From contig OZ252016.1 in the NCBI GenBank assembly GCA_965247475.1, positions 982,087-1,046,086 of the forward strand: a DNA stretch of 64,000 bases, written 5' to 3'. This document shows, piece after piece, positions 1 through 58,600 of this stretch. Origin of the DNA: Chloroflexota bacterium. GTDB lineage: Bacteria; Chloroflexota; UBA11872. Numbering within the stretch: the first letter of the stretch is position 1; every line of letters starts with the position of its first letter. The position numbers and the translations under genes were made by a program. The notes beneath the pieces are model-generated. The model was not told where the DNA came from. It saw nothing but the letters and a program-made list of their open reading frames with translations, and ran no database searches.

Positions 1-50
1 CCTGCGCCGCGGGGTATGTCGTCGCCCAGCCCGATAAGAACCTAGGCCTG

Positions 51-1958
51 GTGCGCGACTGCCAGACGCTGATGGATCTGCGGGGCGCGCTGTTCGGTAG
101 CGTGACTACGAACTGGAGTGCCGGGACCCCGATCGACGAGTGGGTTGGCCTGACCATCGAGGGCTCGCCGTCACGGGTAACGGGCCTGAAAGTCGGCGGT
201 GGTGCATACGGCAATCCCATCACCGCGGGAATCATCCCGCCCGAGCTCGGGAATCTGGCCAGGCTGCGGACGCTGGACCTGTCCGGCAATCAATTGTCGG
301 GGAATATCCCATCGGCGCTTGGTCAGCTTGCCGAACTGCAGACCCTGGACCTCACTCGCAATCAGCTCTCGGGACGGATCCCGCCGCAACTCGGTGACCT
401 CGGCACGCTGCAGAGCTTGAGCCTGGCCGATAGCCGACTCTACGGTGGAATCCCACCGGAACTGGGCCGGCTTGCCGGCCTCCAACTCTTGAATCTCGCC
501 GGAAACGACCTCACGGGCGGCATCCCGGCGGAGTTGGGCAACCTGTCCAGCCTGCAGCGGCTCTATCTGGGGGGTAATGAATTCGCTGCGAGCATTCCAG
601 GCGAACTGGGCCAGCTTGTCGAACTGCAGGTGCTGCACCTCGCCGAAAGTGGGTTAGGGGGCAGCATTCCGCCCGAAATCGGCGAGCTGGCTGAACTGGA
701 GATTCTGGATCTCTCCGAGAACGATCTGACGGGTGACATTCCAACTGAACTCGGCGGGCTGAGAAACCTGACCGAATTGCAACTCGCCGACAACCAGCTG
801 ACGGGCGCTATCCCTTGGGAACTGGGCTGGCTCACGAAGCTCGAGGAGTTGAACCTGTGGGAGAACCGGCTCACAGGACGGGTCCCCGTGGCCTTGGGCG
901 GCATCTACAGCTTCAAGGGGCTGCGGCTCTGGGGGAATCAGCTGGAGGAATGCCTGCCCTTCCATCTGACCAGCCGCGAGCGCTTGCACATCGACGTTAA
1001 GGAATGGCCCACGTGCGAGGCGGGTGTGTACGCCTTCAATGTCCGCGACGACGCGGCGCGCGGCGCCAGCGTGGGCACGGCATTCGTCCCCGGCCGGCGG
1101 GCGGGCACGGCCAACTATGTGATCACAGCTGGAAACGAGGACGGCGCGTTTGCCATCGACCCCGCCAGCGGCCGCATTACCGTGATGGGCGCGCTGGACG
1201 CCGCCACGGCCGCGGCCTACGCGCTTACGGTGGAGGCGGGCGACGGGACCGGCGATCCGGCGACCGTAGCCATCCAGGTCCTGCCGACGCCGTCACCGGC
1301 GACCTGCGCCAGCGGAATCGCCGTACCCAATCCGCAGGACAATCCCGGGCTGGTGAACGACTGCCGCATTCTGTTGCAGGTGCAAGAGGTTGTGGTGGGG
1401 CCGAGGTGGCTGAATTGGAGCGCCGAAGCCCCGATGGAGCAGTGGGAGGCGATCGAGATTGGCGGCATGCCGCGCCGTGTCCTCGCGCTGGAGATTCGAG
1501 GGCCCCACGGCGGCGGACGCATCCCTCCGGAGTTTGGCGGTCTGACGGCCTTGCAGCGGCTGGTGATCGCCGACAACCGTTCGTGGGGTCCTGTCCCGGC
1601 GGAACTCGGCCGCTTGAGCGAGTTGCGCGAGCTTGACCTGTCGTACAACCACTTGTCGGAGGCGATTCCGCCGGAGCTTGGGCAACTCGCGAACCTGACG
1701 AAGCTCAGCTTGGCAGTCAATCGGCTGACCGGCGCGATCCCGGCGGAACTCGGGCAATTGACCAGCGTGGAGGAGCTGTGGCTTCGAAACAACCGCTTGA
1801 TCGGCCCGATCCCGGCGGAACTCGGGCAATTGACGAGCCTGCGAGAGCTACAGCTCGACTCCAACTATTTGACGCAGTGCCTGCCGGCCGTTTTGGCCGT
1901 CCGCGCACGCGAGGGCGTCACGTTACCGGACTGGCCGACGTGTCAGGCGGACGTCTAG
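51..1958 (+). CDS. Secreted or surface protein with two modules of plant-type leucine-rich repeats (LxxLxLxxNxLSGxIP) separated by a cadherin-like domain. Each LRR block ends in a CLP...WPTC cysteine cap. The frame is open back to base 1, so the gene may be 5'-truncated by the window edge.
   Basis: 635-aa ORF. It contains about 10 plus about 6 tandem 24-residue LRRs with the LSGxIPxxLGxL consensus. The central segment VITAGNEDGAFAIDPASGRITVMGALD...YALTVEAGDGTGD is cadherin-like. Both halves show a repeated ...CLP...(D/E)WPTC(E/Q)A motif. Stop TAG at 1956-1958. Confidence 0.75.
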   Translation: MRDCQTLMDLRGALFGSVTTNWSAGTPIDEWVGLTIEGSPSRVTGLKVGGGAYGNPITAGIIPPELGNLARLRTLDLSGNQLSGNIPSALGQLAELQTLDLTRNQLSGRIPPQLGDLGTLQSLSLADSRLYGGIPPELGRLAGLQLLNLAGNDLTGGIPAELGNLSSLQRLYLGGNEFAASIPGELGQLVELQVLHLAESGLGGSIPPEIGELAELEILDLSENDLTGDIPTELGGLRNLTELQLADNQLTGAIPWELGWLTKLEELNLWENRLTGRVPVALGGIYSFKGLRLWGNQLEECLPFHLTSRERLHIDVKEWPTCEAGVYAFNVRDDAARGASVGTAFVPGRRAGTANYVITAGNEDGAFAIDPASGRITVMGALDAATAAAYALTVEAGDGTGDPATVAIQVLPTPSPATCASGIAVPNPQDNPGLVNDCRILLQVQEVVVGPRWLNWSAEAPMEQWEAIEIGGMPRRVLALEIRGPHGGGRIPPEFGGLTALQRLVIADNRSWGPVPAELGRLSELRELDLSYNHLSEAIPPELGQLANLTKLSLAVNRLTGAIPAELGQLTSVEELWLRNNRLIGPIPAELGQLTSLRELQLDSNYLTQCLPAVLAVRAREGVTLPDWPTCQADV

Positions 1959-2318: not shown

Positions 2319-2394
<76 letters not shown>

Positions 2395-4246: not shown

Positions 4247-5083
4247 ATGCGGTGGCCCTTGTCAGCTCGAATCACTAGCGTCCTCGCCCTCTTCACGGTC
4301 GCGCTGGCCATCGGCGGCGCCGGTCTCGGGCTTGCGCTGGCCAACATGGGTGAAGCGGCTGAGACCGCAGCGGTCGAGACCAAAGCGGCCAAGGCCGGAT
4401 CGATCGAAAGAGACGTCGGCAAACACGCCGACGCGCGCGGAGATCGTTCCGACAAGGAGTCACGCGCACGTGGCGTTCATGAGGATCGAGAGCGGATTTC
4501 GATCGGCGCCATGATTCCGGGGCCCGGCCGGGCCATCATCCGCGCCGACGAGATTCTGGGCTCGGGACCGTTCGGGACTACTGAGATTCGAGGGACCATC
4601 ATCGAGGTCGCGGATGATTCCGTCTTGATCGAGACCGCCGATGGCGAGCGCCGGCGCGTTCACCGAATCGGCGAGCTCGCGGACGAGTTCGAGGCGAACC
4701 GCGAAGCCGGCGACGAGGTCACCGTCATCGCCAGGACGCGTCCCGACGGCCGCCTCACAACGGTCACGCCCGTCGAGTGGGCGCCGATTCGACGCGGCGA
4801 AGTCGGCTCGTCCGTCTCGATAGTCATAGCCATCGGCGAAGCGACCGAGGTGAACGCGGCTTCGATCCGGATCGCGACGATACGCGGGAACGACGTGGAG
4901 GTGCGGGCAACGCCTGAACAGCTCAACGGCCTGGCGCCCGGCGACGAGGTCATCGTGATCGCCAGTCGCGAGGACGACACGCTGACGGCGCGATCGGTCA
5001 TGCGATTCGGAGGAGCATTCGCACGCGATTTCGTCCCCAGGATGCGCGCGTCTGTGCCGACCCAGGCGCTGGCCGCCTTCTAG
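4247..5083 (+). CDS. Secreted hypothetical protein with repeated beta-rich segments (DUF5666-like)
   Basis: Strong RBS GGAGAAGGAG 6 nt upstream of the ATG. N-terminal signal peptide. Repeated GDEVTVIA/GDEVIVIA segments. Confidence 0.6.
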   Translation: MRWPLSARITSVLALFTVALAIGGAGLGLALANMGEAAETAAVETKAAKAGSIERDVGKHADARGDRSDKESRARGVHEDRERISIGAMIPGPGRAIIRADEILGSGPFGTTEIRGTIIEVADDSVLIETADGERRRVHRIGELADEFEANREAGDEVTVIARTRPDGRLTTVTPVEWAPIRRGEVGSSVSIVIAIGEATEVNAASIRIATIRGNDVEVRATPEQLNGLAPGDEVIVIASREDDTLTARSVMRFGGAFARDFVPRMRASVPTQALAAF

Positions 5084-11784: not shown

Positions 11785-13641
11785 TCAGCTCCCGGCGCGG
11801 CGCACGTGAAGAACCAGCCGGCTGGGATGTGCGGCGTCGTGGTACACGGCCTGATCGGCCACGACGAGCCGGCGCGAGTGCCCGAGCGGTTCGCCGGTGT
11901 TCGGGTTGGCGTCGAACCGCGGGTAGTTGGACGACGAGATATCCACCCGAATGCGGTGCCCGGCGGCGAATCGGTTGGCGGTGGGGTACAGCACGATCCG
12001 GAACTCGTAGACCTCGCCGGGATCGAGCAATTCCTCGCGGTCGAAGCCGCCGCGGAACCGCGCACGGATGATGCTGTCGGCGATATTGAGCTCGTAGCCG
12101 CCGGGCGCCGATCCGGGAACACCCCGCTCGTGCGGGTAGACGTCGAGCAGCTTCGCGGTGAAGTCCGTATCCACGGCGCTGCTGGACGCGAACAGGACGA
12201 CCTCGACCGGCCCCGCGATCACGACGTCTGACGCGAGCGCCTCCGTCTCGAACGTCAGCACGTCGTGGCGGGATGCGATGGCGAGGGAATCGTGATGTCC
12301 GAAGAACCGCGACGGCTGCCCGCGTTGATCGAAACCGCCCGACGGCAGGATGTCTTCCGCCGCGCTGATCGAGCCGCCGACGGTCGGGACCGGATGTCGA
12401 GGGTCGTACGTATAGGTTGATGGCTCGATGGCATCGACCGACGGATCGGGCCGGAGCGAACCGTCCGAGTGCAGGTGATACGCGATCTCGGCCGTCTCGG
12501 GCGGCGGCCACACGTCGGACGTGTGCCACTCGCCGCCATGCCAGAGCGTGAGCTCCGGATCCTGGGGGCGGCGTCCCCGACGGCCGCCCATGAGGAAGTA
12601 GCGGACGGGCGGCTCCTCCGCCAGTCCCGTGTCGAGCCCCTTGAGGTGCTGATCGAAGAATCGCAGCCGCATGTCGTCATAGAGGGGTAGCGGCGAATCG
12701 ATGCCGAACTCGGCGTCGCCCGACGTGCTTTCCTCGGTCGTGCCCTCGCCGTGCCGCCAGGGTCCGAGCAGCAAGCGCATCGGGCTCTGCTTGCGTTTGC
12801 CCAGGCCGTTGAAGTTTGCGATCGCGCCGCGCGGGTACGTGTCGTACCACCCGCTCTGGAACAGCACCGGCACATCGGCGTGATCGTCCCAATACCGGTC
12901 GATCGTGTAGCCCCGCTGCATCCAGTAGTCGTCGTAGGCGCCGTGCGTGAGCACATCCCACGCCCACCGCTCGTAGCTGGGGAGCAAACGGAGAGCCGTC
13001 CGTCCCGGCCGGAACCGCAACGGCGGGCGAAAGATCTCCGGAACACGCGCGTACTCCTGGTCGAGCACGCGCTTGAGGTCGGGATCGGCGAGCGCCTCAC
13101 GGCTGCTCGACGCCATCCAGTACGCGTAGCGGATGAAGCGCTGCTCCAGCGCGCCGCCCTGGCGCAGGGAGGAGACGTGGTAGTTGCTGGTGCCCTGGCC
13201 GATCACTTGCGCCGCCAGATGCGGCGGGTCGAGCGTTGCCAGCGAGCTCTGGTCGGAGCCCGCGTAGCTGGCGCCCATCGTTCCGACGACTCCGTTGCAC
13301 CACGGCTGCGCGGCGGTCCACTCGACCACGTCAAACCCGTCCGGCGCCTCCTTCGCGAATGGATACCAGTCGCCGTCCGAACGACCGCGGCCGCGGACGT
13401 CGTTGATGACGACGGCATATCCACGGCGCGCGTACCAATGGCCGCGGCGCGCGTACCGCGTGCCGTCTTTCAGGTATGGCGTGCGTTCGACGATGGCGGG
13501 GACGGCGTCGCCGATTTCCTCGCCCCCGGCGGCCGGCAGGTAGACGTCCGCCGCCAGCTCGACGCCGTCGCGCAGCGCGATGCGAACGTCCGGCCGGACG
13601 TTCGAGTCGAACTCGAAATGCGAGCCTTGCCGTCCGGGCAT
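11785..13641 (-). CDS. CocE/NonD family hydrolase (X-Pro dipeptidyl peptidase, S15-like)
   Basis: VINDVRGRGRSDGDW and GASYAGSDQ are serine-hydrolase motifs. A large C-terminal beta-sandwich region follows. Start at ATG 13641. Confidence 0.8.
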   Translation of the reverse strand: MPGRQGSHFEFDSNVRPDVRIALRDGVELAADVYLPAAGGEEIGDAVPAIVERTPYLKDGTRYARRGHWYARRGYAVVINDVRGRGRSDGDWYPFAKEAPDGFDVVEWTAAQPWCNGVVGTMGASYAGSDQSSLATLDPPHLAAQVIGQGTSNYHVSSLRQGGALEQRFIRYAYWMASSSREALADPDLKRVLDQEYARVPEIFRPPLRFRPGRTALRLLPSYERWAWDVLTHGAYDDYWMQRGYTIDRYWDDHADVPVLFQSGWYDTYPRGAIANFNGLGKRKQSPMRLLLGPWRHGEGTTEESTSGDAEFGIDSPLPLYDDMRLRFFDQHLKGLDTGLAEEPPVRYFLMGGRRGRRPQDPELTLWHGGEWHTSDVWPPPETAEIAYHLHSDGSLRPDPSVDAIEPSTYTYDPRHPVPTVGGSISAAEDILPSGGFDQRGQPSRFFGHHDSLAIASRHDVLTFETEALASDVVIAGPVEVVLFASSSAVDTDFTAKLLDVYPHERGVPGSAPGGYELNIADSIIRARFRGGFDREELLDPGEVYEFRIVLYPTANRFAAGHRIRVDISSSNYPRFDANPNTGEPLGHSRRLVVADQAVYHDAAHPSRLVLHVRRAGS

Positions 13642-13892
13642 CGGAGATGCGCCACCTATCGCGACCAGCGTCTCGGGTGGATTGTGACCGACCGGCGTCG
13701 ATCTGTCCGATGCTGGCGCGCTGTTTGCGGCCGGGCGCCGGACCGATCCTCGACGCGGGGGTGCCTGTGCTACAAGTGTGGCCGTCAACGCGCCCGGACC
13801 AGAGCGCAGCCCAAATCACCACGCAGCTTGCCGTTGTTCGAGCGGTCGACGCGACCGAGGGGTCAAGTCCAGGCGTGCTCGGTCGTCGCATC

Positions 13893-14957: not shown

Positions 14958-16376
14958 TCAGTCCCAGCGCCGCGGCCCCAGCTGCCGACTGCTCAGATAC
15001 GGCGTGCAGCCCGGCCGCGACTTGAACTCGCTGAAGTAGTCGGGAATCGCGCCGCCCGCATCGTCAACCGCGCGACCGAGCAATCGCTTGACCTCGCCCG
15101 GATTCTCGTCGGCGAGGTTCCGCTCCAGCAGCGGGTCCTCGTCCACCCGATACAGCAACGGTTCCTCACCCCAGATGGTCGCGTTGCACCACCAGTCGGC
15201 ATCGATCACGGTCATCAGCGGACCCCAGGCGACGGTCACATAGTCGCGCGGCGATGCGTCGTTGGCGGCCACCACCGGCCAGACATTGGACCCTTCCGTA
15301 TCCGCTTCCGCGCCCGCGGCGGCCAGCATCGTGGCGGCCAGATCGGTGTTCGTCACGAAGTCGTCGTAGGTCTGTCCGGCCCGTGGCGTGTCGGGGTGCC
15401 GGATCATCACCGCCAGATCGGCGACCGAATGCGTCATCGGGTGGCCTTGCTTGCTGACCAACCCCTTGTCGCCCGGCCCGATGCCGAGATTGTGCCCGTG
15501 GTCCGACGTCACGATCACGAGCGTGTCGTCCAGGCGCCCGTAGTGGCCCAGCGCCTCCATGAAGTGCCCGAACCAGAAGTCGGTCAGCGTGACCTCGCCC
15601 GCATAGTTCGCCTGGCAGCGCTTGAGCTCGCGATCGGTGAAGACCCCCTCGTGCGGCGCGTAGAGCGATTGGATGATGTCGGCGACATCGTCGTCGGGGT
15701 CATACAGGCGCCGGTAGTACGGCGGCGGCTCCCACGGCTCATGCGGGTCGAACGAGTCCACGACCAGGAAGAACTGCTCGGCGTCCTGGTTGTCGTGCAG
15801 CCAGCGTGAGGCCTCGCGGAAGAGGCGAGCGGGGTAGAAGTCCTCTTCGCCGCGCCTGAACAGGTTGTTCGTGAGGTACTGACGGTAGAACCCCGAGCGC
15901 CTCTCGTCCGGCCGGCTGGCCGGCACGTGGCCGTCGATCGTCCCGGCGGGAAGCTCGGGTCCGGAGCGGAACCTGTCCATCTCCTGCCCGCGAATCCACT
16001 GCCACTCGTCGAAGCCGCGGTGGAAGTTCTTGGACGGCTTGAACTGGTGGTAGCAGTCAGTGAACAGCGCCGTCCGGTAGCCCTGGGTGCGGAGCAGCTC
16101 CGCGACGGTGTCCTGATCCTCGGGAATCGGCCCCCACCCGGGGGACCCGGGGAAGTCGCCCTTGTGGTCGATGTGGCCTTTGAACGGGAAGGTCCGCTGG
16201 CCGGTATGGATCGCGCGTCGAAACGGGAGCGTCGGCAATGACTCGGGATAGGCGCGCGTAAGCCGGATCGATTCGCTCGCGAACGCGTCGAGGTGCGGTG
16301 TTCGAATCCAGTCGTTGCCGTACGCCCCGATGTGGTCCTTACGCAGCGTGTCGAAGATCACGAGGACGATGTTCAT
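14958..16376 (-). CDS. Sulfatase-like hydrolase (alkaline phosphatase superfamily)
   Basis: MNIVLVIFDTLRKDH N-terminus. SDHGHNLG motif. Start at ATG 16376 preceded by AGGA. Confidence 0.8.
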   Translation of the reverse strand: MNIVLVIFDTLRKDHIGAYGNDWIRTPHLDAFASESIRLTRAYPESLPTLPFRRAIHTGQRTFPFKGHIDHKGDFPGSPGWGPIPEDQDTVAELLRTQGYRTALFTDCYHQFKPSKNFHRGFDEWQWIRGQEMDRFRSGPELPAGTIDGHVPASRPDERRSGFYRQYLTNNLFRRGEEDFYPARLFREASRWLHDNQDAEQFFLVVDSFDPHEPWEPPPYYRRLYDPDDDVADIIQSLYAPHEGVFTDRELKRCQANYAGEVTLTDFWFGHFMEALGHYGRLDDTLVIVTSDHGHNLGIGPGDKGLVSKQGHPMTHSVADLAVMIRHPDTPRAGQTYDDFVTNTDLAATMLAAAGAEADTEGSNVWPVVAANDASPRDYVTVAWGPLMTVIDADWWCNATIWGEEPLLYRVDEDPLLERNLADENPGEVKRLLGRAVDDAGGAIPDYFSEFKSRPGCTPYLSSRQLGPRRWD

Positions 16377-16534
16377 GCAGCTGTTGTCCTGCCGGTGGTC
16401 GGCGAGCATCGTCCACCGCGGGCACGTTATCGGTCAATCGCGTTACGGGTGGGGCGGCGCCGGTCGGACGGTCGTTGGGATTCGAGCGGTAACCTACGAG
16501 AGAGCAGCCGTTCCCGTACGGGCGGGCGCCGCAT

Positions 16535-51954: not shown

Positions 51955-52027
51955 GCCCCCGTAGCTCAGTGGACAGAGCAGCGGCCTTCTAAGCCGTTGG
52001 TCGCAGGTTCGAGTCCTGCCGGGGGCG
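51955..52027 (+). tRNA. tRNA-Arg (anticodon TCT)
   Basis: GCCCCCG-TA-GCTCAGTGGACAGAGC-A-GCGGC-CTTCTAA-GCCGT-TGGTC-GCAGGTTCGAGTCCTGC-CGGGGGC-G. Perfect acceptor stem. CCA is not encoded. Confidence 0.8.
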
Positions 52028-52226
52028 CCGCCGACCAGGCGTCACGGGTGCCCCGAACCTGTCAATAGGGCGTTTGCCGGGGCGCGGGTCGTCGAGTCGC
52101 CATCCTGGAGCCATACCGCCCGTTCCTTCGGAGGGTGCGGATGCGCCACACACCGGCCACGACGATCCCGGCGCTGGCCAAACACGAGTTCGGGTCCGAA
52201 TAGCGTAGAAGTCGCAAGCCATTGCT

Positions 52227-53437
52227 CCCCCTAGGGGGAGACCTTTGCATAACCCCGGTGGCTCGCCACAATCGGCCCGGAGGGCAGCGCTGAGGGAAGG
52301 GTAGCCATGCACCGCACCGTGAGTGGGGGGTCGTTCGTGGAGGCGCTACTGCCGGAGCGGCTGGGGCGGAACGCGAAGCTGGAGCGGCTGGACGCGGTGG
52401 TTGACTGGACGCCGTTGGCGGAGGTGGTCGCGGGCATCCACGCCGCGCCCGCCGGCCGTCCCAGCTACCCGCCGCTGGTGATGGTGAACGTGCTAGTGCT
52501 GCAGCAGTGGTACGGGGCCTCCGACGAGGCGATGGAGGAAGCCCGGTGGGACCGGGTCTCGTTCAAGCGGTTCGTGGGGCTGGGGCTGGAGGACGACGCG
52601 CCGGACCACTCGACGATCAGCCGCTTTCGGACGGCCGTGACGGAGCGCGGGCTGGCCGGGCGGCTGTTGCAGGCGGTGAACCGCCAGTGGGAGGCGCGCC
52701 GGTTGCTGGTGAAGCAGGGCACGCTGATCGACGCGACGCTCGTAGCGGCGCAGGCGCGGCGGCCGTCGATGCGGGAGCGGCCGGGGGCCCGGAGCGCGAC
52801 CGACCCGGAGGCTGGATGGACGCGCACAGGAGGCCGAGCGCACTTTGGCTACAAGGCGCACCTCGGGGTGGATGCGGGGTCCGGGCTGATCCGAGCGGCG
52901 GTGCTGACGCCCGCCAACGTGAACGAGACGGAGGTGGCGGACGGGTTGGTGAGCGGCGATGAGGCGGCGGTCTATGCCGACAAGGCCTACGAGTCGAAGG
53001 CCCGCCGGCAGCGGCTGCGGGCGCAGGGCATCAACGACCGGATCATGCACCGCTCGCACAAGCACCAGGCGCAACTGCCGTACTGGCAGCGGCGCCGGAA
53101 CGCGCTGATCGCCCGCGCGCGGGCACCGGTGGAGCGGGTGTTTGGGACGCTGAAGCGATCCTACGGCTATCGGCGCGTGCGCTACCTGGGGCTGGAGCGC
53201 AACGCCACGGAGTTCTTCTTCAAATGCCTGGCCTACAACCTGCGCCGGGCGGACCGGTTGCTGGCCGCCGCGCCCGCGTGTCCCTAGGAGGCCTGCGCCC
53301 TCGGCCGGGCAATGACCGGCGCGCGGCGGGGCCGGGGGCGGCTGAGCAGCCAGAACCACCCGTCCGGTCGCTTCCCCGGTGGACGGCCCCCCTCAAGGCC
53401 GGCTAGGGCGCATTACGCAAAGGTCTCCTAGGGGGCA
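52227..53437 (+). mobile_element. IS5-family insertion sequence, complete, with roughly 28-bp terminal inverted repeats
   Basis: IR-L CCCCCTAGGGGGAGACCTTTGCATAA. IR-R is the reverse complement of TTACGCAAAGGTCTCCTAGGGGG. A single transposase ORF lies between them. Confidence 0.8.
52307..53287 (+). CDS. IS5-family DDE transposase
   Basis: 326 aa. DDE_Tnp_1-type conservation (GTLIDATLV...GYKAHLGVD...YADKAY...RAPVERVFG). Confidence 0.85.
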   Translation: MHRTVSGGSFVEALLPERLGRNAKLERLDAVVDWTPLAEVVAGIHAAPAGRPSYPPLVMVNVLVLQQWYGASDEAMEEARWDRVSFKRFVGLGLEDDAPDHSTISRFRTAVTERGLAGRLLQAVNRQWEARRLLVKQGTLIDATLVAAQARRPSMRERPGARSATDPEAGWTRTGGRAHFGYKAHLGVDAGSGLIRAAVLTPANVNETEVADGLVSGDEAAVYADKAYESKARRQRLRAQGINDRIMHRSHKHQAQLPYWQRRRNALIARARAPVERVFGTLKRSYGYRRVRYLGLERNATEFFFKCLAYNLRRADRLLAAAPACP

Positions 53438-53657
53438 ACGGCCCGCAGATCGGCCTAAGCGCGGTTACAGATTTGGCGCGGCTCAGCGTCGACGCGTGTC
53501 CCGTCGGTTCTTTTGAGTTCTACGGAATACGCACAGCGCTCCACCAGACGGACGGTGCAAAATTGAAGTGTGATAGCCACCTCAGGACCCACAGACCCGC
53601 TCCGTCAACCAGCACCGGCCCGCAGGCCTCCGGGCTAGGACATCACCAAATCGTCAA

Positions 53658-53966
53658 ATGCAGTACCGCCTCCTCCTCGGGCTACTACTCCTACTGACAA
53701 CTCTCCTCTTCGCCGCGTGCGGTGAAGGCACCGCGACCGAGTTGAGTTCAGATCACCGTGCGGTGGCTGACGCGAACGCGAAGCCGTGCAGTACTCCGCC
53801 GCGACCGGCATCCAGATCAAAGAAGGCCGATCTCATCCTCACCGAAGCCGACGCCGGCAAGACCATCCAGACCCCGACGTTCCAGGCTGACCTCGGCAAC
53901 CCGGACAAGAAGGGCGTCATGCTGACGCTGGAGGGCGACGACGCCGCCCTGCCGATCCGGCCCTAG
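53658..53966 (+). pseudogene. N-terminal fragment (signal peptide plus about 80 aa) of a lipoprotein paralogous to 25050..25610
   Basis: Lipobox LLFAACGEG. LTEADAGKTIQTPTFQADLGNPDKKGVMLTLEGDDA parallels LTEADAGRVIDVDYFQYEIGLPDKKGTEIHLEGDDA of the intact copy. The ORF stops immediately afterwards. Confidence 0.5.
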
Positions 53967-54170
53967 GGTCGGGCGATGCCGCGCGACCACGCTCGCGAGT
54001 CACACGAGATCACACCCGCCGTGAGAGGGGCTCGCCGGCCAAGCCCGGAGACCCTGCGGGGATTCTGATCAGTCCCCCCGATGAGGAGACGTTTGCATAA
54101 CCCGGTCAGGCTGAGGATGTCCGGGGAGAACCCTGCGCGGTTCCAGGTTGGGTGGGGCCTAGATTCCCTA

Positions 54171-55196
54171 GATTCACAAACGAAGTGCAACACCTCATGA
54201 AGGTCCTGCGATGGGACGCCGATACGCGCACCTCACCAGTGACGAGCGCTGTGAGATTGCCCGCCTACGCGCCCAGGGCCGCTCGATCCGGCAAATTGCT
54301 GCAAGTCTGGATCGCGCGCCATCGAGCATTGCGCGGGAGCTGACGCGCAACCGGTCACGCACCCAGGGCTACCAGCCCCGCTATGCCGACCAGCAGGCCC
54401 ACGCCCGCCGCTGGCGCGGCGCCCGCCTCGACCGGGATCCGGCGCTGCGCGACCGCGTCCTCGCCCGCCTCGCCCAGGGCTGGTCCCCCGAGCAGGTCGC
54501 CGGCCGGTTGGCCCGCGAGGCCGGCCGCTCGGTCATTGCCCACGAAACCATCGACCGGTTCATCTATGCCCAGCTCGCCCGCACGAAGGACTACACGTGG
54601 CGCTACTACCTGCCCCGCGCCAAGTCCAAACGCGGCTGGCGCGGGCGCAAAGGCGGTAGCCCCGCCTCCTTTATCGCCCACCGCCGCCCCCTGGCCGACC
54701 GACCCGTCGCCGCCGCGGACCGCCAGACCCCCGGCCACTGGGAGGCCGACCTGATGCTCGTCCGCACCTATGGCCAGGCGGTCCTCACCGTGCACGAGCG
54801 TCACTCCCGGCTCCTCGTCGCCGTCCGCCCGCCCGGCAAAGCCGCCGCCCCCATCGCGACCGCCCTGACCCAGCTCCTGGCGCCCTTGCCGCCCCCCTGG
54901 CGCCAACCCGTCACCTTCGACAACGGCACCGAGTTCGCCCGCCATCACCGCCTCCATGCGCTCGGCCTCGCCACCTTCTTCTGCGACCCCCACGCCCCCT
55001 GGCAGCAAGGCGGGATCGAGACCGCCATCGGCCGCCTGCGCCGGACGTTGCCCCGCAAGACCGACCTCGTCGGCCTGCCGGACGACCGCTTTCGGCAGGT
55101 GGTCCAGGCCTACAACAACACCCCCCGCAAGTGCCTCGGCTACCAGACCCCCGCCGAGGTCTTCTGGACACACGTGTTGCACTTGAAATGTGAATC
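54171..55196 (+). mobile_element. IS30-family insertion sequence, complete
   Basis: IR-L GATTCACAAACGAAGTGCAACAC. IR-R, as its reverse complement, is GATTCACATTTCAAGTGCAACAC. The two match at 19 of 23 positions. Confidence 0.85.
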
Positions 55197-55221
55197 CACC
55201 TTCCGGCGTTCGCGGGAATGA
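54211..55221 (+). CDS. IS30-family transposase (HTH_38 plus DDE integrase core)
   Basis: 336 aa. N-terminal HTH (LTSDERCEIARLRAQGRSIRQIAASLDRAPSSIARE). DDE core (...HWEADLM...TFDNGTEF...). Confidence 0.85.
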   Translation: MGRRYAHLTSDERCEIARLRAQGRSIRQIAASLDRAPSSIARELTRNRSRTQGYQPRYADQQAHARRWRGARLDRDPALRDRVLARLAQGWSPEQVAGRLAREAGRSVIAHETIDRFIYAQLARTKDYTWRYYLPRAKSKRGWRGRKGGSPASFIAHRRPLADRPVAAADRQTPGHWEADLMLVRTYGQAVLTVHERHSRLLVAVRPPGKAAAPIATALTQLLAPLPPPWRQPVTFDNGTEFARHHRLHALGLATFFCDPHAPWQQGGIETAIGRLRRTLPRKTDLVGLPDDRFRQVVQAYNNTPRKCLGYQTPAEVFWTHVLHLKCESTFRRSRE

Positions 55222-55602: not shown

Positions 55603-58600
55603 TTGCGTAGTCTCTGGGCAAGGAGCGCTGCGCCCGGAGGCCCGCGCGTGCGAGCGCGACGATTGACTCAGGATCAAGGGCGCCGACGGCTGTGGACCAT
55701 CGGGCTGGCGGCGGCATTGCTGGCGATGATGCTTGGCCTCGCCGTGCGGTTTGTGGCCGAAGTGGAGGCCTTTGCGCCGCCGCCCGCGCCACTGCCAACC
55801 GCCGCCGCCCCAAGCTCGACGCCACCAGCCGACGCGTTCGCGCCAACGGCGGACACAACGACTCCGGCACCCGGCGAGCGGTTCATCGCCGTGAGCAGCG
55901 GCAACTTTCACACCTGTGCGCTGCGCGCCGACGGTGAACCTGTGTGCTGGGGCGCCAAGCCGGTAGATCCTGACGCTGGCTTGCGGCTGGTTGACTTCGG
56001 TCAGACCTCGCCGCCCGCCAGCGAGCGGTTCGTGGCCATCAGCAGCGGTGGGTTCCACACCTGCGGCCTGCGCCAGAACGGAACCGTCGTGTGTTAGGGC
56101 GCTGAGGTAGGTGACGAGACCAGGGGATACGGCCAAGTCGGGCACGGCTAAACATCCCCCCGGAAGGTGAGGTCTTTGTAGCTATCAGCAGCGGAGGCGG
56201 GCACACCTGCGGACTCCGCGAGGATGGCACGGCTGTCTGCTGGGGCGACGACAGCTCAGGCCAGGCAACGCCGCCCGAGGGTGAACGCTTCGCGTCCATC
56301 AGCAGCGGCTCGTACCACACCTGCGGGCTGCGTGAAGATGGATCCGGTGCCTGCTGGGGGCCCGAGTACAACTCGGGGGCGTGGGAAGTGCCGCCCGAAA
56401 ACCCGTTGGTCGTTCTGGACAGCGCCGACGGCTATACGTGCGGCCTGCGGCAAGACGGCTCCCCGATCTGCTGGGGGGGCGAGCGGTCGGACGAGGTCTA
56501 CGCCAACCAGTACCCGCGCAGCTCCGAGCGTTTCATAGCCATCAGTGGGCGTGACAGTCGCGGACGCGGCGGCTGCGGCCTTTGGACCAACGGCACCGCG
56601 GTGTGCTGGGGCGGTGTCGATCCGCCCCCGCAGCGGCAGCAGTTCACCGCGATCAGCAGCGGTCTGGAACACACCTGCGGTCTCCGCCGCGATGACGGCG
56701 GGCTCGTGTGCTGGGGCGGCGACGAGTTTGGCCAATCGTCGCCGGCCGGGATGCGGTTCGTTGCCCTCAGTAGCGGCGAGCGGCATGTCTGTGCCCTTCG
56801 GGCGAACGGCGCGCCCATCTGCTGGGGTGACCCGGCGCAAGGTCGCACCGCGCCGCCTGCAGGCGAGACGTTCGCGGCCATCAGCAGCGGCTGGGCCCAC
56901 ACCTGCGCCCTGAGGTCTGACGGGGCGCCGGTTTGCTGGGGTCGGAACGACTACGGCCAGGCGCAGCCGCCGGACGGCGAGCAGCTAAGCGCCCTCAGCA
57001 GCGGGCCTACCCACAGCTGCGGCTTGCGCTCGGACGGCACGCCCCTCTGCTGGGGCCGGAATGACGACGGCCAGGCGTCATCGCCCGCCGGCGCACAATT
57101 CACGTCGATCAGCAGCGGCGGAAGCCACACCTGCGCCCTGCACGCCGATGGCAGTCCGTTCTGCTGGGGCGACGAGGACGACGCGGTCACTCGCGCGCCC
57201 AATGTCGACCAGTACAGCTCGATTGTCAGTGGCAGCGGGTATGCCTGCGGACTGCGGTCGGACGGCACGCTGGTTTGCTGGGGTAGAGGCTCCTTGGGAG
57301 CTCCGCAGGGCGAAACGCTCTCGGTCGTAAGCCTCGGGTCGGGCCACAGCTGCGGCCTGCGTCGGGACGGCCGACCCGTCTGTTGGGGCGATGGGTACGA
57401 CACGCCGGTGGTCACGGCCCGCCGATCCACCTACCAGATCATCAGCGAGCAGAGCGTTCGCGCCGTGAGCGGCGGCTATGGGCGCACCTGCGCCCTGCGC
57501 CATGACGGCCGCCCCGTGTGCTGGTCGCTCAGGAGCGCCTATCCAAATCTGAGCGGCGAGCTGTCGGTGCCGTATGGCGAGCACTTCACCACGCTCAGCA
57601 GCGGTGGCGGTCACACGTGCGCCTTGCGCGACGACGGTACGGCCGTGTGCTGGGGTTCCGACGATGAAGACAAGTCGTCGCCGCCTGAGGGCGAGCGCTT
57701 CACGGCGGTGAGCACCGGCTTCTCGTTCACGTGCGGCCTGCGTGAGGATGGCGCCGCTGTCTGCTGGGGGAGCGATGAACGCGGAGGGGCGTCGCCCCCG
57801 GAAGGTGGGCGGTTCGTCGCCATCAGCAGCGGCCTGGGTCTGAGGCATGGGCACACCTGCGCGCTGCAAGAGGACGGGTCCGCCGTCTGCTGGGGTTCAA
57901 ATGACGAGGGCCAGGCCTCGCCACCGGCCGACGAACGCTTCATGGCCATCAGCAGCGGCGCGCAACATACGTGCGCCCTGCGCCTGGACGGGACCGCCGT
58001 CTGTTGGGGCTACGACTGGGACCGCTAGGCATCGCCCCCGCCCGGACAGACGTTCACTGCCATTGCCAGTGGCCGCGCCCACACGTGCGCCATTCGCGCC
58101 GACGACGGAACGGCCGTCTGCTGGGGATCGAACCGCGACTTCATCTACGACTATCTGGGCCAGGCCAGGCCGCCCTATGGCGAAACCTTTTCCGCCATCA
58201 GCACCGGCCAGGACCAGACGTGTGGCGTGCGCTCCGCCGATTCGACGCCGGTGTGCTGGGGGGAAGGACCCGGGCACCGATCCGGGTATCCCAAGCTCAA
58301 GCCCTTTGCCGAGGTCGGCGGTGAGACGTTCAAGTCCATCAGCAGCGGCGACGGCCATGTCTGCGCCCTGCGCAACGACGGAACCGCCGTCTGTTGGGGC
58401 GACAACGAGACCGGTGAGGCCAATCCGCCGCCGGAGACGTTCAGCGCGATCAGCAGCGGGGCCAACCACACCTGTGCCCTGCGGGCGTCGGATGGGGCGG
58501 CGATCTGCTGGGGCAGCAATCGCACCCCCGATGGCAAGTTCGCCGGCTATCGCGATCAGGCGCTGCCGCCCTCTGGCGAGTCCTTCGTCGCCATCAGCAG

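Follow-up and report, generated by a model that had tools for sequence, protein, structure and literature searches.

The first 1,958 nucleotides of the window, by which we mean the whole 64,000-nucleotide stretch of Chloroflexota DNA that was analyzed, hold the end of a gene encoding leucine-rich repeats (LRRs) of plant type. The locus raises three questions: whether these repeats truly belong to the plant-specific (PS) class, where in or outside the cell their protein acts, and what it does there. PS-LRRs were originally held to be exclusive to plants (PMC2244805). That part of the definition does not hold for this gene, whose bearer is a Chloroflexota bacterium, and bacterial PS-LRRs have already been reported by Miyashita et al. 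(2013, Nat Sci 5:580, as cited in PMC9471246).

Domain order of the encoded protein

On the forward strand, frame 3 runs without a stop from base 3 until the TAG codon at 1956-1958, giving a product of 651 amino acids (aa). The preliminary description of this DNA had stated that the open reading frame runs to the window edge and that the N-terminal part of the protein is missing, and a search of the protein database agreed. Entry P0001 (1043 aa) is 100% identical to the fragment in the window, P0002 (1087 aa) is 94% identical, and about 15 more full-length orthologs are 66-75% identical. The full-length protein is 1043-1087 aa long, and the window holds its last 651 residues; its signal peptide and propeller region lie outside. 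No terminator-like site was found 3' of the gene. The features within the window are listed below, with residues numbered along the fragment.

3..1958, + strand: 3' part of the coding sequence, C-terminal 651 aa plus stop codon (open reading frame, database match)
3..176, + strand: N-cap 1, aa 1-58, with Cys1 and Cys20 (cap alignment; remote likeness to plant LRRNT_2-type caps)
177..983, + strand: LRR module 1, 11 repeats of plant-specific type, aa 59-327 (Pfam, register search, consensus)
948..1016, + strand: C-cap 1, ECLPFHL...WPTC, Cys317-Cys338, overlapping the last repeat (conservation, cysteine count)
1023..1292, + strand: single cadherin-like Ig-fold domain, aa 341-430 (Pfam PF00028, modeled beta strands, paralog relatives)
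1305..1478, + strand: N-cap 2, aa 435-492, with Cys435 and Cys454 (cap comparison, cysteine count)
1479..1910, + strand: LRR module 2, 6 repeats of plant-specific type, aa 493-636 (register search, consensus)
1875..1943, + strand: C-cap 2, QCLPAVL...WPTC, Cys626-Cys647 (conservation, cysteine count)

Pfam searches with the fragment returned LRR_1 (1.9e-49), LRR_8 (2.6e-38), and LRR_14 (2.3e-36). In the register search, 14 of the 17 repeats began exactly 24 aa past the preceding repeat, within the 23-25 residues that define the PS class; repeat 1 of module 1 is irregular, and the other ten repeats of that module are spaced at exactly 24 aa. The consensus taken column by column over the repeats was LxxLxLxxNxL(S/T)GxIPxELGxLxx, with L at positions 1, 4, 6, 11, 19, and 22, N at 9, S or T at 12, G at 13 and 20, I at 15, and P at 16. 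The published PS-LRR consensus is LxxLxLxxNxL(t/s)GxIPxxLGxLxx in a repeat of 23-25 residues (PMC2946307; PMC4030839). Our consensus agrees with that of PMC2946307, so the plant-specific class to which the repeats had been provisionally assigned is the right one.

Between the two modules, the Cadherin model PF00028 passed its cutoff of 28.8 bits both when the whole fragment was searched (34.7 bits) and when the domain was searched by itself (39.3 bits). Thus, the HMMER/Pfam check proposed in the preliminary description found LRR_8 and, above its threshold, Cadherin, and Pfam and the register search together placed the two plant-type modules on either side of the cadherin-like domain, as had been claimed. 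The AlphaFold model, made for P0002 from the ortholog alignment, had a mean pLDDT of 74.7, with values of 85-95 in the LRR blocks, 70-90 in the propeller, and 50-82 in the cadherin-like sandwich, a segment in which beta strands were present. The Ca2+ motifs of tandem cadherins (LDRE and DxNDN) were not seen in this single domain, which has LDAATAAAY and no DxNDN before the linker. Its relatives occur as tandem arrays of 6-7 copies in genes adjoining paralogous PD40-LRR genes; this arrangement suggests that the PD40-LRR-cadherin proteins may be a mix-and-match family.

The order LRR block, cap, cadherin had been taken to be repeated along the protein. It is not the repeated unit, because only one cadherin domain is present, and the second C-cap is followed by 4 residues and then the stop codon. 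In the orthologs, module 1 is preceded by a PD40 beta-propeller and not by another cadherin-like domain. The repeated unit of the protein is N-cap, LRRs, C-cap, and the full order of domains is Sec signal peptide, PD40/TolB-like beta-propeller, capped LRR module 1, cadherin-like domain, and capped LRR module 2.

Export, cysteine caps, and ancestry

The N-terminal 390-435 residues that are absent from the window form the PD40/TolB-like propeller (PF07676, 75.6 bits, with a further match to DPPIV_N), which has six WSPDG-type blades. Ahead of it, a Sec-type signal peptide, (R)FVALAAVLVALGVSLTTRPAHA|HS, was present in 12 of the 16 ortholog gene calls. The 5' end of the gene lies outside the window, and we read the upstream region in a 94%-identical relative, L001, in place of the window's own contig. 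An in-frame stop just upstream of the fragment in a protein with no signal peptide, a case that the preliminary description had considered, did not occur.

The remaining four gene calls have no signal peptide; they include P0001, the entry identical to our fragment. These calls would suit a cytoplasmic repeat protein, for example, the sensor domain of a defense or signaling system. We give this reading hardly any credence, since all four start at an internal Met of an otherwise conserved N terminus and since paired, conserved cap cysteines suit an oxidizing compartment. In addition, the domain search found no signaling, NTPase, kinase, or effector domain in the protein.

The anchor signals that had been suggested for checking alongside the signal peptide were absent: neither the protein nor its orthologs have an LPXTG motif, transmembrane segment, lipobox, SLH domain, or PEP-CTERM signal. 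All of the orthologs terminate 2-4 residues past the last cap cysteine. We identified neither an anchor nor a secretion-system gene. These results bear on the proposal that the protein is an extracellular, disulfide-capped adhesin or receptor. Its first part is supported by the signal peptide in 12 of 16 calls, by four conserved pairs of cap cysteines, and by plant ectodomains as the closest structures. As to its second part, because there is neither an anchor nor a signaling domain, a role in binding or adhesion fits better than that of a receptor.

Each LRR module ends in a cysteine cap, as had been described (Cys317/338 and Cys626/647), and both C-caps have the form CLP-x17-WPTC. The fragment has eight cysteines, all within the four caps, and each is invariant or at least 90% conserved among 16 relatives. 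We infer that all four cap pairs would form disulfides in the LRR protein. The N-caps, with cysteine pairs of their own (Cys1/20 and Cys435/454), had been overlooked in the preliminary description. Each is about 58 aa long and has the layout C-x18-C, helix, and then NW...W-G-L.

The Pfam model of plant N-caps, LRRNT_2 (PF08263), which had also been proposed as a check, did not match the N-caps even at an E value of ≤10, whether the search was made with the N-cap alone or with the whole fragment. A remote likeness appeared when profiles were compared. Aligned by hhalign, a profile of 29 bacterial caps and one of 16 plant caps matched with a probability of 91% (E, 1e-6) over the helix, the (N/S)W, the WxGV, and the first strand. 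A hidden Markov model of the bacterial N-cap matched plant receptors weakly (≤11 bits), and always at the site of the plant N-cap. The plant cysteine pair, CxWxGVxC, is absent and replaced by P(I/M)xxWxG(L/I), and the bacterial pair, C-x18-C, lies upstream of the helix. Because the N-cap profile found 4747 representative proteins (E ≤ 1e-3; clusters at 50% identity) among 1.84 billion, the N-cap is a large family without a Pfam model. Single proteins with up to 16-20 copies of it were found in the same search.

With Foldseek, the top 50 matches in the PDB were all ectodomains of plant LRR receptor kinases (MIK2, ERL1, PEPR1, GSO1, FLS2, HAESA, PSKR, and BRI1). With phmmer, the PDB matches included GSO1 (2e-188) and FLS2 (5e-133), the best bacterial chain being Leptospira LIC11098 (2e-56), and several of the sequence alignments began inside the N-cap. 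Among eukaryotic and PDB entries alike, plant LRR receptor kinases matched best, with 40-46% identity across the LRRs, and transfer of PS-LRRs between plants and bacteria was argued by Miyashita et al. (2013, as cited in PMC9471246). The gene might then have been acquired recently from a plant or alga and encode a receptor ectodomain whose ligands are peptides of plant type. We regard such an acquisition as very improbable. A shared consensus inflates the similarity between repeat proteins, the codon usage is native (the GC3 of 0.80 is like that of the neighboring genes), the cysteine pattern of the N-cap is unlike that of plant LRRNT_2, whose Pfam model finds no match, and the bacterial N-cap family, at 4747 representative clusters, is very large.

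Compared with the 94%-identical relative, the gene had a dN/dS of 0.26 overall, 0.24 in module 1, and 0.08 in module 2; the value of 0.83 for the cadherin segment comes from just 20 substitutions. Judged from these sequence comparisons, the LRR gene is functional and under purifying selection. Diversifying selection, as in a hypervariable receptor, was ruled out by the overall dN/dS together with the unremarkable variability of the concave face. Among the orthologs, the x positions of the concave LRR face are roughly as variable as the rest of the exposed positions, and so no particular binding face is indicated. Synonymous divergence from the relative was about 2.5 times higher in the LRR gene (dS, 0.11) than in its neighbors (0.03-0.045), and nucleotide identity was 95% versus about 98%. 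Recombination or gene conversion between repeats is a possible source of the excess.

The repeated architecture had been taken to imply an internal duplication. As a recent event, this was rejected on the identities of the N-caps: the two share only 40-42% of their residues, whereas comparison of either one with caps from other proteins in related genomes gives 45-58%. Because the N-caps are nearer to foreign caps than to each other, the modules appear to be old, separate lineages, which points to their having arisen by an old duplication or by module shuffling within a large family. The core observation of the preliminary description, two plant-type LRR modules around a cadherin-like domain and each with a cysteine C-cap, stands, with two corrections needed.

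Habitat, gene neighborhood, and proposed function

A survey that scanned one genome per species yielded 13 orthologs of full or nearly full length (L002-L014), and every one of them belongs to a Chloroflexota MAG. Among these MAGs are jk18x bins, which come from Caribbean Ircinia sponges (PMC9531527); in the literature searched, direct sponge provenance is documented for those bins only. The names of other MAGs (the RHO2, COS2, and APA bins and Spongiisociaceae) suggest a sponge origin for them as well. Most likely, the bacterium that bears our gene lives in a marine sponge.

The domain content agrees with such a habitat. A published list of eukaryotic-like domains with enrichment in sponge microbiomes includes LRR, cadherin, and PD40 (PMC9531527), and for sponge MAGs both enrichment and lateral transfer of LRR and cadherin genes have been reported (PMC8163846). 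All three domains of our protein thus belong to classes reported as enriched in these two studies. Eukaryotic-like proteins (ELPs) have been described as typical of sponge Chloroflexi in general (PMC6306507), and ELRs are presumed to help keep the association with the host in place (PMC8163846). According to work cited in PMC8163846 and PMC6306507, ankyrin ELPs are the only ones to have been functionally tested.

Upstream DNA is available for 12 ortholog loci, and in every one of them an open reading frame of 2009-2075 aa lies directly upstream of the LRR gene on the same strand. The product in L001 carries a signal peptide together with 47 RCC1_2 repeats (984 bits), each repeat containing two cysteines. 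On the downstream side (tRNA-Lys, URO-D), synteny extends to the closest relative and no further. Because the upstream RCC1 gene is constant and the downstream synteny is lost, we consider the RCC1 gene and the LRR gene to be a linked pair. In three loci there is a third gene, encoding about 1300 aa with 19-22 PS-LRRs and two capped modules.

We infer that the LRR protein binds extracellularly, that the host is its target, and that it cooperates with the RCC1 protein. In the reading we prefer, and which we hold to be probable though far from assured, it is an exported, soluble or loosely attached, disulfide-capped, multidomain binding protein of the sponge-symbiont eukaryotic-like class, directed at the host. 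After Sec export to the outside of the cell, four cap disulfides would form, one in each N-cap and one in each C-cap, and would seal the hydrophobic ends of both LRR solenoids. The cadherin-like Ig domain would be a spacer between solenoids 1 and 2, and the concave beta-sheet faces of the solenoids, together with the propeller, would bind extracellular macromolecular ligands. Because the protein belongs to the sponge-symbiont ELP repertoire, host or mesohyl-matrix proteins are the likeliest ligands, and the binding may serve to attach the bacterium or to modulate recognition by the host. The protein would probably act jointly with the giant secreted RCC1-repeat protein encoded upstream.

The same exported protein could also serve the cohesion of bacteria with each other or with the matrix, or be a scaffold associated with the envelope or S-layer, without being directed at the host. 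We consider this unlikely, although several results are compatible with it. The signal peptide is of the Sec type alone, with no effector-type secretion signal, and specialized secretion systems are found in few sponge MAGs (PMC8163846); cadherin and fibronectin-type domains could mediate attachment between bacteria (PMC8163846). Related modules are spread across many phyla in tandem gene arrays: distant relatives with the capped module were found in Dehalococcoidia, Caldilineaceae, Latescibacterota, Gemmatimonadota, and others, often in such arrays, where a single open reading frame can have as many as 38 repeats and 5 caps. However, the family is concentrated in MAGs from sponge-associated lineages, and none of the signals that would retain the protein at the cell (SLH, LPXTG, PEP-CTERM, or lipobox) is present.

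Also present in the window are genes for two sulfatases and for an S15 X-Pro dipeptidyl peptidase, PD40 propellers are frequent companions of peptidases (note the DPPIV_N match), and attachment genes with cadherin and fibronectin domains have been linked to lineages that degrade glycosaminoglycans (PMC8163846). The modules might then be accessories in substrate capture, tethering the cell or its enzymes to polymers of the host extracellular matrix as these are degraded. That explanation seems to us quite improbable, as neither the LRR protein nor its conserved RCC1 partner has a catalytic domain, and in other genomes the degradative genes are unlinked to the LRR gene.

A wider version of the host-directed reading can be entertained tentatively, but we lean against it as a whole: the capped PS-LRR module would be a large, unmodeled bacterial family (at least 4700 clusters, with as many as 16-20 modules in one protein) that shares ancestry with the ectodomains of plant receptor kinases, and with the RCC1 giant it would make up a conserved two-gene, extracellular host-interaction system in sponge-associated Chloroflexota.

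The locus supplies a concrete, delimited example, with boundaries, cap cysteines, a partner gene, and orthologs, of a class that is usually given as Pfam counts. Among the eukaryotic-like proteins of sponge symbionts, none of LRR type has had its function tested; the two short capped solenoids could be expressed alone and used to seek sponge ligands. A model of the N-cap would improve the annotation of thousands of metagenomic proteins and would permit a phylogenetic test of the relationship between bacterial and plant PS-LRR ectodomains.

Comparison with known systems

In the literature searched, we found no description of the combination of PD40, capped PS-LRR, cadherin, and capped PS-LRR, of the N-cap family, or of the linkage to an RCC1 gene. 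The architecture, the N-cap family, and the RCC1 linkage are variations within known kinds, the occurrence of PS-LRRs in bacteria and the enrichment of ELPs in sponge symbionts having already been published.

The ectodomains of plant LRR proteins (GSO1/SGN3, FLS2, MIK2, HSL1, and PGIP) have the same 24-aa repeat and consensus and are this protein's best matches in both sequence and fold. They also have a Cys-bounded C-cap after the last repeat and are extracellular, as is predicted here, and the plant LRRNT_2 caps share the layout of a helix followed by (N/S)W...WxGV (the hhalign match described above). In contrast to plant LRR receptors, our protein comes from a bacterium and lacks both a transmembrane helix and a kinase; its N-caps have C-x18-C upstream of the helix in place of CxWxGVxC and do not match Pfam LRRNT_2. 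In addition, it has two short solenoids with a cadherin-like domain between them and a PD40 propeller in front.

Among bacterial proteins, the best NCBIfam matches were the Xanthomonas proteins XopAC and XopAE, at 151 and 162 bits versus cutoffs of 450 and 600, and only over the LRR part. The type III effectors XopAC/AvrAC and XopAE carry different catalytic or N-terminal domains, whereas our protein combines cysteine caps with a Sec signal peptide. The internalins and the Leptospira LRR adhesins (LIC11098 and the LIC_11051 family) are likewise secreted or surface bacterial LRR proteins, bind host proteins, and gave partial matches. They differ in LRR class and repeat length, and the scores were far under the cutoffs (class 1 internalin NCBIfam, 73 bits versus 1600). 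Unlike them, our protein has no LPXTG, GW, or lipoprotein anchor.

The sponge-symbiont ELPs/ELRs (Reynolds and Thomas 2016; PMC8163846; PMC9531527; PMC6306507) share with this protein the domain classes LRR, cadherin, and PD40 and a presumed role in host association, and orthologs of it are present in MAGs from Ircinia sponges. Whereas studies of these ELPs count Pfam domains, the gene described here has one defined architecture, with its caps and its linkage to an RCC1 gene.

The RCC1/LRR gene pair and the N-cap family

The neighbor of the LRR gene (window 3-1958, plus strand) lies directly upstream, outside the window, and was located at the locus of the closest relative (L001):

L001:3597-9809, giant RCC1-repeat gene

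Its product, a secreted protein of about 2040 to 2075 amino acids (aa), carries a signal peptide. It is made up of 47 RCC1_2 repeats (984 bits), and every repeat contains two cysteines. The giant adjoins the LRR gene on the upstream side in every ortholog locus (L001, L002-L010, L012, and L013).

The LRR gene itself encodes two of the bacterial LRR N-caps (alignment A3), for which there is no Pfam model:

window 3-176, N-cap
window 1305-1478, N-cap

The alignment gave the consensus CxxGxAVxDPxxNPGLVxDCxxLLxxRDxLxGxxxLNWxxxxPIxxWxGV, and a profile search (E ≤ 1e-3; 1.84 billion proteins) found N-cap matches in 4747 representative proteins, some of which have 16 to 20 copies each. In three ortholog genomes, the pair is followed by a third gene, whose product of ~1300 aa has 19 to 22 plant-specific-class LRRs, two N-caps, and two C-caps; this gene is missing from the window's genome.

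L002:13348-17253, third gene
L007:13180-17112, third gene
L011:3751-7572, third gene

A second RCC1-repeat gene

Another RCC1-repeat gene is inside the window, preceded by a tRNA gene and two transposase genes (window 51955-55221) just upstream:

51955-52029, tRNA-Arg
52253-53287, transposase, DDE_Tnp_1/DUF772 type
54211-55218, transposase, IS30-like, HTH_38 + rve type
55900-59900, plus, second RCC1-repeat gene

This gene appears broken. Its repeat motifs switch back and forth between frames 1 and 3, and the ORFs that cover it, 56388-58028 and 57847-60036, overlap each other. It also contains a 114-nt tandem repeat (56862-57140). It is probably either a pseudogene or the result of an assembly frameshift.

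Other features of the window

2319-2394, minus, tRNA-Lys
4247-5083, plus, 278-aa ORF
30750-30826, minus, tRNA-like gene (ARAGORN)

Between the LRR-gene stop codon and tRNA-Lys (1959-2320), identity to L001 is nearly 100%, versus 95 to 98% for the coding DNA on either side. This stretch, which holds a 48-aa antisense ORF overlapping the 3' end of the LRR gene, is a possible site of a small gene or regulatory RNA. The segment most diverged from L001 is the 278-aa ORF, which has no Pfam match (90 to 91% nucleotide identity, 85% amino acid identity, dN/dS of 0.44). The tRNA-like gene, to which ARAGORN assigned a four-base anticodon (ccgt) and which had a low Rfam tRNA score (43.6 bits), is located in a block of lower GC content (0.64 versus about 0.68) at roughly 28 to 36 kb.

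Comparison with sponge symbionts

11785-13815, minus, S15 X-Pro dipeptidyl peptidase
14958-16433, minus, sulfatase
35110-36732, minus, sulfatase

RCC1-type proteins are scarcely named in the sponge-symbiont literature open to search. The two sulfatases and the S15 X-Pro dipeptidyl peptidase are in keeping with the range of matrix-degrading functions that sponge symbionts are described as having.
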